DNA from: Pristiophorus japonicus
Lineage: Eukaryota
NCBI RefSeq assembly: GCF_044704955.1
Contig: NC_091984.1
Span: 123,318,001 to 123,382,000, forward strand
DNA length: 64,000 nt
Reading direction: 5' to 3'
The notes under the pieces: generated by a model
The model's input: the letters and a program-made list of their open reading frames with translations, nothing else
Told to the model about the DNA's origin: nothing
Databases searched by the model: none
Shown here: positions 25,331-42,429 of the stretch, piece after piece
Numbering within the stretch: position 1 is the stretch's first letter
How the letters are laid out: every line of letters starts with the position of its first letter
Translations under genes and position numbers: made by a program

Positions 25331-26427
25331 TTTTATCTTTACTTTTGCTAGTTTGTCAATATTTTAAGAACATAAGAATATTTTCTCCATTTCTATTCCC
25401 ATTTGTATTAATATTCTGTTTAAGCTCATCCTCGTGCAGTGTCTTTGATCTCTCTGACCAAGCTTTTGATCACCTGTGCTAATTTCTACTTATGCTGCTC
25501 GATGTCAAATTCTTTAATTGCATAATACTCCTGTGAAGCACCTTGGGATATTTCATTGCGTTAAAGGCATTATAGAAATACAAGTTGTTATCTATTTCAA
25601 TTATATTCTTGAGTAAAGATAGAGGCAAAGTTGTTACTCAATACATCTGCCATTACCTGTGCATTTATCTTGCTCGTCCTTTAATGGTCCTATCCACAAT
25701 TTCATTTTCTTTGTTATTTGTGTATCTTTAAGAACCCATTTCTTCATATTCCAGTGACCACAGATTGCATTATAGTTTAAAAAGATGGAGTTAGTAAACC
25801 TAGCTGGAATCAAACATTTTTTTCACTTTACTAGTGAAGAGACACGTGAGGAAGTTCCGAAAGCTTGCCCCACATCTACAACCGTGTAATATTTTGAGGC
25901 ATTTACCTGTATGGCCTGGAGGGGAATCTTATTTTAATTCAGGTTCTCAGACTGCTAGAGAGGTTAGATTTTTCTTACAAAGCATTAACTCCCGAAGTTA
26001 CAACTTTGACACAAGGGGGCGATATTACGATCACAGGTCATGTTACCATTTAACTAGATATTGGCAGTAAAAGATGTACTGTAAATCACTGGGGTTAGGT
26101 GCTCAACTTACAGGAGTAATCAATGATGCTACGCTAACTTTTCTCTTTCCTGATGTTAATGTTTTCATCTCATAATACTCCTGTGAAGTGCCTTAGGACA
26201 TTTCACTACGTTAAAAGGCACTATTTTAATACAAATTATTGTGATTATTGACCTGCCATTGTGTGTTTTTATTTCAGATTTCCAACATTTACAGTTTTTC
26301 CTTCTTAATTGATCCCTTTTATACCACTTTGCCATGTTGACTGGGATACACTACCTCAAAAGGATTATGATGTTGCATTGAAATTGTGCCTTCTAAATGG
26401 ACATGGTGAGGTGAACGGACCATCATC

Positions 26428-27531
26428 ATGACTACTACTTATGAAGAATATATTGCTCCTCAGGGAACACTGGTGAAGCCTTACTACTGGTTGTGTTTCA
26501 CAAAAAGCTGTCCAAAATGTCCATATCACATCAAAACCGGGGAAGAGGCACGCATTTCCTATGTAGAATTTTATGAAACCTTTGGGTTTCCCTATGCTCA
26601 GCCACAGTCTAGCAGGCATCTGGTCTTCTATGAACTGAAGTTATCATCTGGTACTTTAGTGCAGAAAGGACATGTAACCAACTGTACTTTATACCACCTT
26701 CATCCAGAATCCATGTTCTTTGATATAGATGGCTACCTGGATACACTCATGTACTCCTATGAAAACATTGCTTATATTACCATCTACTCCAATTACACCC
26801 CATGTAATGAAAGAGCCCACTACTGCATAAACAAAATGTGTGATTTTTTGGCAAATTATCCCAGCACTAGGTTGGATATTTATTTCTCTGCATTCTATCA
26901 TATTGATGACTACTTCTCGGAATCTGGATGGAATAGAGAAGCTCTCCACAACTTGGCAGCACTTTGGCCGAGAGTAACCCTCAATCCCATCTGTAGTGGG
27001 ACGTGGCTAACTATTCTTCACAGATTTGTGAATGGTGTGCCTCGGACAGCACTTTACAACCCAGTTTCGCCGGAACGAGCTTTCGCGGACCTGAGCAATG
27101 CCCATCAGATAGGTGCCATCACTGGAGTTAATCCTGCTTACATAGACATCATACCTCAAGTGAAACATCAAAAGCAACATTTTAAACCAGCATGCGTGAA
27201 TTTGTACCCCTTTTCACAAGCACCGCCGCCAATTATAAATAGAATGGCATTCATGGCTCCACACCAACCATACATGAATTTTCCAAACATGCTGCTATTG
27301 CCTTGGTCTATGTACCCACTTCAACCACAGAACATTAAACCGAAGAATGTTGTGAGACACCTGAACATGCCCGACTCATCCAAATGGAAAGCACCAGCAA
27401 ATCCATCACCACACAATGTGAGAGTAGCTGAAATAGTCGAAGTTTTCGAAGTTCCGGTGAAGAAAAGACCAAACAATTCAAAGCAAAAGAGGAAGACAGG
27501 GAAAAGGGAAAAATCTACAAGAAGGGATTAG
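26428..27531 (+). CDS. APOBEC4: APOBEC4, putative C->U deaminase (AID/APOBEC family), 367 aa, single coding exon
   Basis: Diagnostic A4 sequence YEEY..GTLVKPYYWL..CPYHIKTGEEAR, FYELK.SSG.LVQKGH, HPESM (26701), SNYTPCNERAHYC (26788-26826), WNREAL..LA.LWPRV, KP.NVVRHLNMP, basic C-terminus; uninterrupted ORF. Confidence 0.97.
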   Translation: MTTTYEEYIAPQGTLVKPYYWLCFTKSCPKCPYHIKTGEEARISYVEFYETFGFPYAQPQSSRHLVFYELKLSSGTLVQKGHVTNCTLYHLHPESMFFDIDGYLDTLMYSYENIAYITIYSNYTPCNERAHYCINKMCDFLANYPSTRLDIYFSAFYHIDDYFSESGWNREALHNLAALWPRVTLNPICSGTWLTILHRFVNGVPRTALYNPVSPERAFADLSNAHQIGAITGVNPAYIDIIPQVKHQKQHFKPACVNLYPFSQAPPPIINRMAFMAPHQPYMNFPNMLLLPWSMYPLQPQNIKPKNVVRHLNMPDSSKWKAPANPSPHNVRVAEIVEVFEVPVKKRPNNSKQKRKTGKREKSTRRD

Positions 27532-39420: not shown

Positions 39421-41923
39421 GGAGGGAAAGAAAGAAAAGGAAGAAAAAAAAAAGAAAGAGAAAGGAAAAAAAAAAAAAAAAAGAAAGAGAAAAAGATAAA
39501 AAGAAAGAAAGAAATAGGAGTAATAGGCTCCGGTCTGGAGCGGAGGCCAAAAGATGCACGCAAATGGACACCAAGGAAATTCAGGTTACTGAACCACAAC
39601 TTAGTTAAGCTCAAACTACTTTACAATGTTGAGTTGGGAAGAAAGGTTTTTCTCTCCCAGTAGTAGGTTCGAGGTTGGATTTAAAGCAGTATCACAGGAG
39701 CCTCAACTCTGCATGTGACCCTGCTTGAAATAATCTAGCAATACTTGACCACGACACCAAGTGCCTGTAGTTGAATCAGGCTCCGTTTTACAGCAAGACA
39801 TCCTCCTTCACCTTAAATAGACATTATAAAGTCATCCAAAAGCTACTGAAATCATTCTAACCTTCAAGAGTCTTTAATGACCCAATATAACTCAATAAAA
39901 AAAAAAGACAAGACCAAACAACTTTTACTGAAAATCAAACACTGAAAATGCAAGACTCCACTATAAATGTTGATCAATACACATGGAAATGCAATTAGAT
40001 CAACATGGCATCTATTTTTAAATGCAGCCTAGCTGTCATTACTCTAGGCAGTAGCTCGAACCTGAGCTCTTGCCAAGTCTAACCCTAATCCGTTCATCAA
40101 ATCAGCAAACACAGGTTGCAAGGTCTCATTTCTTTCTGCAGCCATTGCTTCAGGACAAAGATAGGAGGAGGACTAAATCAACAAATAAACCAACCAGTCA
40201 GACAGATTAGTTCACCAGACTTGCTACTGGCATTGATTCAATGAACCAGTACAATCAATTTGTTTCAACATTTAGAATTCAGGAGAGTCTAACTTAATAT
40301 GTTCTTCATTTTGCACTTACTTCTGTCCGACCTCATTCACCTTTGTACAATTTAACAGATCTTTGGACAATAATTGAAGGACAGCATGACACATCAAAAC
40401 AAGAAGATTTTAGCAAAGTTATGAAAGCTACAGGTGGTATAGTCAGATATCATTTTATAGGAACCTCCCAGATCAACGGAAGACGAAGCCCTTAATTGTT
40501 TCAGCATCTGTTAACACAAGTTGATACTTGCTCCTTTTTTCTATATGCACACATCCTCCTTTAACACGCAAATGTCCTTTCCAGACATTCACTTTGCTTA
40601 TGCAATGTTTCACTAGGTTAGTTGTGTGGGCCACATTTTGATTTTACGCACTTCAGGCACAATGGGCTGAATGGCCTTCTATGCTGCAAGATTCTAAGAT
40701 TAGAGACCAGCTTTCGGCAGGTCACCTTGCATTGGTTTGAGCTCACACCAAGTGTAGTACAAATACTGTTGCTTCAAAGCAAAGCTATCTTTGTCCTGCA
40801 TTAATGTGCCTCAGCCTCCATCTCAACAATGACATTTTTCTATTTTCATCAGGGATTATCTTGTGGACTCTCAAGTGAGATAATCAAATCAGTACAAATT
40901 CAACAGGAGCTATTTGGAAACAATTATACTCTATATAGAGCAGTCGCACTAATCTGAAGATCGGCAGCCAAGTGGTTGCTGGATAGGTTAGAGTTTAAAG
41001 CTTGATCTTTAGGCCAAACAAAAAAAACCCTGTACTTTTAATATATTAACTCATTCTTTAAAGGTTTGATCATGTCTGTATTAGAGTTGAATCTTTTCTA
41101 CTGAAACCACTTCTACCAACAGGCTGCTGTGAACACAACAAAATTGACATTAATATACTGCTACTGACATAAAACAGTCTTCAAAGTTTGAGCACCTTCC
41201 AGTTTATATCCTCTCAGCTACTCCTTGCCCATCAAGTCAAATCTCCCTCCGGCCCCAGTCCTACTGCTCAACCCAGTTTGTTTACTTTTTCTCCCATCTC
41301 CCCCCATACCCGCCCCTCTCCAGGTTTATCCAAATAGCCCCCATTTGAAATGAGATTGAGAAAATGATTGAAGGCCCTTTCTTGGTCCATGGCTGGCACT
41401 GCATTACTTTGTGTAGCAGAGCAAACTTGGCAAAAAAAAACATCACAATCCATGTGTTAAATACAAAACACCATCATGCCGTTAACTAAATTATCAAAAA
41501 GCTGGACTGTTGCAGTGATAAGACAAAAACATATGATACAAAATAAATATATCACCGCTAGAGAGAGATGCTTCAAATTTACTGGTGAACAATTTGATTT
41601 TGAACTGCATGGCAATTTTACTGAAGGATCAGACTTTAGTTATGTGCGCGTATAGAATCTTGTGGAAAGCAGTCACGGATCATCAGGTCCGCACAGCAGC
41701 CAAGGACGCGATCCTTCCATGCAGTTCTTGTGGATGAGATAAGCACTGCGGCAGCATTAATCTGAAACTATGGCGAAGAAACTCAGCTAACGGATTATAG
41801 AAGTGACGCAAAAGTTGCACATTGAAACCTTTTTCAGTCACACTCCTGTGGTCTTTTATTTCTAGATAGGTTAACTAGAGTTTGAAATAGATCAAGACTG
41901 ACTCGTTTATCACATGGATAATT

Positions 41924-42003
41924 TTTTTTTTTGTTCATTGTCAGATCAACTCCAGCGCCAAAGATCACTTTGCGCTATTACACTTGATCTTAGCCAAAAG
42001 GCC
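41924..42003 (-). pseudogene. retroposed U2 snRNA 5' fragment fused to a non-U2 hairpin, with poly(A) and TSD
   Basis: minus strand GGCCTTTTGGCTAAGATCAAGTGTA (42003-41979) equals U2 nt 11-35; then 46 nt non-U2; A-tail; TSD catggataatt at 41913-41923 and 42003-42013. Confidence 0.85.
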
Positions 42004-42429
42004 ATGGATAATTACTGAAGGTGTAGAGCTGGCTAACGAAGGGACTGTTACCCAATTGCATTTGGTTTCGACTTCTGTGCTGAACTCACCCCTTCAGAGC
42101 TAGAATGGCTCTCGAAGAGCGAAAGACAATGCTGTGACCTACTGATGTCTCAAAAACAAAATTCCCCACTGTCTGTGTTGTTCTTGGCACAGCTTCACAG
42201 TCTGGTCTGTATTGTAGGGAATGAAAATAATAGAGCTGACTGCTGCAACATTCTAACTAGTGCGGTTTCGGAAAGAAAAATGGTTATCAAAATACACCCG
42301 GGAGGACTGGGAGGTGCAGAGACCGGTCAAGTGTTACAGCGATGTTTAAATCAAAATAAGACAGATTAACTGCAGTTTTAAAAAATCCTTTTTGATGTAG
42401 TTTTTGCTGTCCTGTTGACTTAGAAAAAG

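Follow-up and report, generated by a model that had tools for sequence, protein, structure and literature searches.

What is the short insert that joins part of a U2 snRNA to an A-tail at positions 41913-42013 (minus strand) of the window, i.e., the 64,000-nt stretch of Pristiophorus japonicus DNA analyzed here? In a preliminary description it was taken for a U2 transcript running into the 5′ end of a U2-specific retrotransposon, which, if multi-copy, would represent an snRNA-headed SINE family in sharks. We find that it is almost certainly a 5′-truncated, inert copy of a U2-headed SINE, which we call family A.

Anatomy of the insert

Read along the minus strand from 42013 to 41913, the insert consists of an 11-bp repeat, U2 nt 11-38, a non-U2 tail of 43 nt, poly(A) and the 11-bp repeat again. 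The repeats (catggataatt, 42003-42013 on the 5′ side and 41913-41923 on the 3′ side) are the sole direct repeat within 41700-42200, which confirms the target-site duplication seen earlier. The last base of the 5′ duplication is also U2 nt 11, a microhomology of 1 nt. The U2 match had been given as nt 11-35 and exact. Its start, a base that also belongs to the repeat, was placed correctly, but not its end: the match (41976-42003) continues to nt 38 with a single substitution at nt 36, giving 27/28 identity to the genome's own U2 gene. This substitution is present in other family-A copies as well. The junction falls at the insertion point of Keno, as had been proposed, but after nt 38 rather than nt 35.

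The tail (41933-41975) is 3 nt shorter than in most copies and is followed by nine A (41924-41932) and two more A within the duplication, in agreement with the A-tail first noted. The hairpin reported earlier is real and is bigger than described. The tail segment comprises an inner hairpin (41976-41954) and the 3′ arm of an outer stem, in which U2 nt ~23-30 are paired with the tail. The predicted fold of the insert, U2 stem-loop I plus a long hairpin, has an MFE of -24 kcal/mol (z -3.2) and was equalled by 1/200 shuffles. Rfam returned a weak U2 match alone (26 bits, E 0.02), and the 400 bp on either side showed no repeat match when compared with the fetched loci and the window. Elsewhere in the window, a stop-free frame of 373 codons is seen at 26410-27528 (plus strand), and most of the remaining long frames resemble LINE or Gypsy-type fragments.

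Family A and its relatives

A 36-nt pattern from the tail has 154 exact matches genome-wide versus 0 for the reversed control, and the tail is therefore not a chance sequence. We examined 86 of the 154 loci (the first 30 by position and 56 more, two duplicate pairs included); outside this set are 14 listed loci, most of which, the window copy included, belong to the genome search described below, and 54 others. U2 lies directly upstream of the tail in 85/86 examined loci, with a longer U2 head in 83/86, and poly(A) is present in 85/86. No promoter-like sequence was found upstream of the copies at the 86 loci. Direct repeats of 9-21 bp were seen around 20 of 28 loci, one 8-mer being left uncounted; we prefer this figure to the automatic duplication calls (60/86), some of which are spurious. 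The copies thus have the common 3′ ends, tail and poly(A), and the target-site duplications anticipated for a SINE. A one-off template-switch pseudogene, whose tail would be single-copy or never joined to U2 elsewhere, is ruled out by a tail that is multi-copy and joined to U2 at other loci.

A full family-A copy is ~270 nt long and consists of U2 nt 1-185, ~11 nt of U2 3′ flank, U2 nt ~8-38 again, the tail and poly(A). The window copy is such a dimer cut off inside its second U2 module, and two further loci (L055, L314) are truncated in the same module. What had looked like the head of the element, U2 nt 11-38, is the internal second module, and the insert is an ordinary 5′-truncated dimer insertion rather than a truncated and tailed U2-Keno co-transcript. 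Structures of the latter kind, U2(1-38) joined to Keno, exist in the genome and are distinct from the window element. A true monomer, in which U2 from nt 2 is joined to the tail, was found once genome-wide (L029). At one other locus (L018), the 5′ segment is inverted. This inversion, the direct repeats and the 5′ truncations point to insertion of the L1/Tx1 type.

Family-A heads differ from the U2 gene by 2.2% (27 heads) and score 150.6 bits against the Rfam U2 family, and the linker between the modules is identical to the 3′ flank of the U2 genes on C19 and C1003. An 8-nt deletion is shared by 66/67 heads long enough to judge; judging from the Rfam structure line, we assign the missing nucleotides to the 3′ strand of stem IIa. 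The search for true U2 genes brought up two copies whose heads are intact. As the deletion, the linker and the tail are common to the copies and the tail has 154 exact matches, we conclude that family A propagates as a unit and not as separate chimeras. With its U2 head, a length below 500 bp, no coding capacity and a poly(A) 3′ end, it is by class definition a young family of the SINEU type. As to the features of Pol III SINEs, no tRNA, 5S or 7SL family was matched in Rfam, the head is U2, and there are internal runs of T4-T6; a classical Pol III SINE is ruled out by the U2 head without tRNA, 5S or 7SL match.

A DNA search of the shark's own genome (5.92 Gb) yielded 704 candidates, of which 40 were scored, giving 41 matches, 40 of them at 92-100% identity. 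Ten of 30 loci of that search represent one insertion in a 6.2-kb tandem duplication and are not independent. This tandem repeat (G000:C18:103.30-103.36 Mb; L008, L011-L016, L022-L024), which carries the family-A copy ten times, also contains a Keno 3′ end. Four DNA-type sequencing runs from one sample contained 63-72% of the query words; the values for other samples or organisms were 0.09-0.34, possibly from the conserved U2 part alone, and do not count as evidence.

Family A has two sister families, B and C, with tails homologous to its own. Deletion-bearing heads number 468 genome-wide, and the first 30, sorted by eye, comprise 23 diverged family-C and 7 family-A copies. Family B, the more derived one, is represented by 4828 exact matches of a 31-nt pattern. 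The Rfam U2 scores are 111.9 bits for family C and 52.3 bits for family B, and the Sm site and the loop of stem-loop IV are kept in A, B and C. In the modelled fold, the B tail has the look of an A hairpin unit that was duplicated in tandem and re-paired into one longer hairpin. Two compensatory changes are seen in this hairpin, and the model suggests selection on the RNA structure of the B tail. The segment that follows the U2 5′ piece in family B (e.g., L097, L111) presumably resembles the 5′ sequence of U1; Rfam gave no U1 match for the family-B head. The extra 3′ end of family B includes a 12-nt match to U6, equalled by 1 to 81 of 1000 shuffles depending on the copy and the scoring. The genome also contains U6 genes in a tandem array at G000:C8:186.57-186.83 Mb, with a unit of ~2.57 kb. 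At four loci (L130, L029, L104, L124), fragments of B, C, A and Keno are stacked, each lying within or behind the next, often with one common target duplication.

U2 arrays, Keno and the spread of family A

True U2 genes gave 346 pattern matches, with arrays on C9, C19 and C1003. Two gene types, that of C9 and that of C19/C1003 (L064, L121), differ in their promoters, 3′ flanks and several substitutions; judged by its sequence, family A derives from a C19-type gene. Many U2 genes of the arrays are broken by B, C or a LINE, with poly(A) abutting nt 39.

An intact Keno-type Tx1 LINE is present in L123 (G000:C1003:15000-24999, minus strand) and in the C19 arrays (L117-L121). The L123 copy encodes an ORF1 of 569 aa with ZCCHC3-type RNA-binding and zinc-knuckle domains and an ORF2 of 1145 aa with endonuclease, RT and zf-RVT domains. 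ORF1 had seven matches, five of them with a species name, and all five are sharks; together with the 154 exact tails, this supports the multi-copy snRNA-headed SINE that had been suggested for sharks. The LINE shows the features of Keno, i.e., ORFs with AP-endonuclease and RT, insertion in U2 and a 3′ flank starting at nt 39, and in the available text of two papers (PMC4640811, PMC6136364) its insertion site is the one described for Keno and Utopia. In the arrays its 5′ end lies behind the promoter and U2 nt 1-38, mostly with a substitution that is absent from the gene, and the U2 piece was therefore copied along with the LINE RNA. The second U2 module of family A and the LINE break from U2 at the same base, nt 38.

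Keno 3′ ends number at least 167 genome-wide, mostly outside U2 genes. Array copies are found at the U2 site, which is occupied by none of the first 30 of the 167 3′-end matches; the resident Keno is thus loosely specific and departs from the strict U2 specificity of Keno. A U2-SINE directly adjoins 7 of the 30 dispersed Keno 3′ ends. At L130:1760-2200 and L029:1590-1640 there is another Keno-like 5′ UTR, unlike that of L123. It represents a possible older partner of family A.

In our view these data are best explained, with a probability of about 70%, by a young U2-headed SINE of ~270 nt that has at least 154 copies, was likely inserted by the enzymes of a Keno-type element and is likely transcribed from source copies behind a U2 promoter. 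The hairpin tail would first have inserted into a U2 gene at the Keno site, yielding U2(1-38) plus tail, a monomer stage that has almost no surviving witness, with one monomer only. A jump of the reverse transcriptase from RNA of this form onto a 3′-extended precursor of C19-type U2 would have generated the dimer, and one master dimer would then have lost 8 nt of stem IIa and become unable to work as U2. RNA starting at U2 +1, polyadenylated or carrying an A-tract and probably bound by the Sm ring, would serve in trans as the template for target-primed reverse transcription at pyrimidine^A sites. The U2 5′ end may act as a homology arm through which copies re-enter U2 genes at +1 and regain a promoter. 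In the window copy, synthesis would have halted within the second U2 module, in its stem-loop I.

Mobilization of family A by a Keno-type enzyme is probable, as the intact LINE in the U2 arrays, the common break at nt 38 and the shared secondary targets support the link. Flanks of A, B, C and Keno meeting at the same base of other repeats were found in 11/3916 pairs, two of which are A-rich artefacts, compared with a mean of 0.225 and a maximum of 2 in 200 controls. The shared-site pairs include three of A and Keno (one marginal), one of B and Keno and two of C and Keno. One hot spot, antisense in an RNase H region, is common to A (L035, L274, L294), B (L193, L197, L200, L201, L207, L208, L218) and Keno (L179, L180, L188); from its motifs we take the host to be a Gypsy-like LTR retrotransposon. 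Mobilization by the Tx1 clade, which in SINEU is judged by shared targets, is thus indicated for family A indirectly and with a caveat concerning the nick base. The base preceding the nick is T in 11/17 A copies and C in 12/15 young B copies (Fisher p=0.005), as well as in 4/6 Keno copies. Since the nick base of A differs from that of young B, A may have been moved by another Keno subfamily or by another L1/Tx1 element. In addition, one A copy is inserted at nt 38/39 of another A head, at a place where B, C and A copies are stacked. This copy at the Keno site sits in a SINE head and not in a true U2 gene, which counts against the Keno model. The adjacency of Keno to the SINEs could also partly stem from Keno inserting at SINEs that carry its target, and A and Keno have no common 3′ tail.

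An unlikely alternative is that a generic L1/Tx1 element moved transcripts that read through from host promoters, as has been suggested for crocodilian SINEU, the array copies being dead ends. Most A copies do lie at non-U2 sites, none was found linked to a promoter, and the nick preference of A is unlike that of young B. The 5′ extensions reported in SINEU-2 (Kojima, 2015, PMC4494074) would fit read-through, but no 5′ extension was found in 86 A or 30 young-B copies. Exact secondary targets in common with Keno and the insertions at nt 38/39 argue against this alternative as well.

The proposal with which we started, that the tail represents the 5′ end of a LINE specific to U2 and that a co-transcript from the U2 promoter was truncated, tailed and moved to give a short SINE of U2(1-38) and tail, is very improbable. 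It draws on a junction exactly at the Keno point, on the U2 nt 1-38 that Keno itself has at its 5′ end, on the single monomer at L029 and on the second Keno-like 5′ UTR, which makes an older donor lineage conceivable. Yet the tail is unlike the sense strand and UTRs of the resident Keno, which refutes the proposal for this element, and most copies are dimers. It had been asked whether longer copies extend into a Tx1/Keno ORF; none of the 86 examined tail copies reaches a LINE. Among 30 loci at which a non-U2 base comes directly after U2 nt 13-38 (25 B, 4 A and 1 Keno), there is likewise none where the tail runs into a LINE.

Several candidates for the origin of the tail were rejected. The tail has no similarity to the sense strand, 5′ UTR or 3′ UTR of the resident Keno. 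A weak antisense match inside Keno ORF2 (10/300 shuffles as good for A, 2/300 for C) emerged from a set of ten comparisons, and we do not read it as the origin. For U2 or the U2 array spacer, the best result was a 14-nt U2 match (7/300 shuffles), and for U6, 563-873 of 1000 shuffles were as good on the sense strand. No Rfam family was matched by the tail.

A processed-pseudogene burst from a variant U2 gene reading through a downstream monomer would account for heads 97.8% identical to U2 with a genuine 3′ flank and, through a single master, for the common deletion, but is the least credible of the alternatives: successive masters are implied by the several variants of the junction and by sister families C and B, which run to thousands of copies, and no such parent gene was found in the assembly.

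Transcription, the Sm site and known elements

Family-A copies start at U2 nt 1-15 in 58/86 cases and at nt 1-2 in 23/86, with no upstream extension. Full-length B copies begin precisely at U2 +1, right after the promoter flank, with poly(A) abutting nt 39, on C19 (L121, three identical) and on C9 (L112). The young B subfamily of these array copies has 202 exact matches. Thirty dispersed young B copies differ from the array copies at 0-8 of 341 nt, and one dispersed B is identical to a C19 array copy, two private variants included. On this comparison, the array B copies may be sources, which fits the data, although the direction is not proven and they could be recent products instead. An exact pattern for a family-A copy behind the C19-type promoter had 0 matches, and no family-A copy in the C9 arrays was seen among the tail matches listed (0/86 examined). 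Promoter borrowing is thus structurally seen for B, and for A we infer it by analogy; the odds that family A is transcribed from a U2 promoter seem to us slightly better than even. For SINEU the question of transcription was left open, with flanking promoters as a suggestion (Kojima, 2015, PMC4494074), and the available text of a 2018 paper (PMC5786205) has the mechanism of such transcription as still undemonstrated.

The 5′ ends of truncated copies pile up near the Sm site. With duplicates dropped, 25 of 84 A loci are truncated between U2 nt 16 and 196, and 14 of these 25 begin at nt 110-125, immediately 3′ of the Sm site, which spans nt 99-105. Under a uniform distribution 11% would be expected in this interval (P=5e-8, the interval having been picked after seeing the data). 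The other truncated copies begin at nt 21-40 (nine copies), nt 95 (one) and nt 134 (one). In family B, which has another stem III sequence, all four Sm-less copies among 20 unselected loci start just past the Sm site, as do all four deep truncations among 30 young copies. Because reverse transcription runs 3′ to 5′, the enzyme would have stopped past an unwound stem III and before the Sm site, which a bound Sm ring fits best. Rival causes are purine-rich microhomology or a shorter processed RNA, and from the position of these ends we consider the chances even that the template RNA was bound by Sm proteins. If so, the pile-up would be a trace, left in the genome, of the proteins that coat the RNA. 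More tentatively, the sequences could be read as those of snRNP mimics that parasitize the U2 arrays of this shark in a closed cycle, with the U2 5′ end as Keno target and as homology arm setting a copy at +1 behind a U2 promoter, an RNA that retains the Sm site and stem-loop IV and whose Sm load causes the reverse-transcription stop seen in two families evolving separately, and dispersal by Keno. This would answer how the promoter-less SINEU get transcribed and would make them retroposons using the snRNP assembly pathway.

Family A resembles the crocodilian SINEU-1, -2 and -3 (PMC4494074) in its U2 head, length below 500 bp, poly(A) and duplications of ~10-20 bp. The recurrent 5′ addition of snRNA pieces, tandem insertions, a 3′ part without a matching LINE and a Tx1-clade partner inferred from shared targets are further points in common (PMC4494074). 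Such snRNA-headed SINEs, which lack an internal promoter, have been known only from crocodilians, and none were found outside them (Kojima, 2015, PMC4494074), whereas the host here is a cartilaginous fish. The shark head is, unlike that of SINEU, a nearly complete U2 with its 3′ flank; there are no 5′ extensions, the family is very young, and sister copies lie inside U2 genes behind the promoter. The partner is a U2-targeting Keno rather than the Tx1-Mar of SINEU (PMC4494074). An origin independent of the crocodilian SINEU is more likely. In the available portions of the literature (including PMC4758252, PMC5786205, PMC5381603, PMC7245038 and PMC5499810) no snRNA-headed SINE is described from cartilaginous fish; one may exist in Repbase Reports, in subscription papers or in supplements.

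With Keno, as far as described in the available text of PMC4640811 and PMC6136364, the window element shares the U2 breakpoint, and the resident LINE has the AP-endonuclease, RT and 3′ flank; the element itself, in contrast, is non-coding and has no sequence in common with Keno beyond U2. Like snRNA-LINE chimeric retrocopies and U2 pseudogenes (PMC4494074), family A shows a template switch onto an snRNA, poly(A) and duplications. Those retrocopies are independent one-offs (PMC4494074), whereas junction, linker, deletion and tail are here common to hundreds of copies. A further parallel is R2 of 28S rDNA (cited in PMC4494074). Transcription of R2 is from the promoter of the target gene, and target-derived 5′ sequence aids precise integration; R2 is autonomous, whereas here a non-coding SINE would use this route in U2 arrays.

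This one genome combines very young families with an intact partner LINE and with copies linked to a promoter, which makes the question of transcription directly testable. By inserting into the arrays, the SINE copies disable U2 genes there, and they are candidates for insertion markers. Apart from these families, a chimera of a retroposed U2 fragment, tRNA-like sequence and poly(A) was observed at L061 (G000:C1:17020588).
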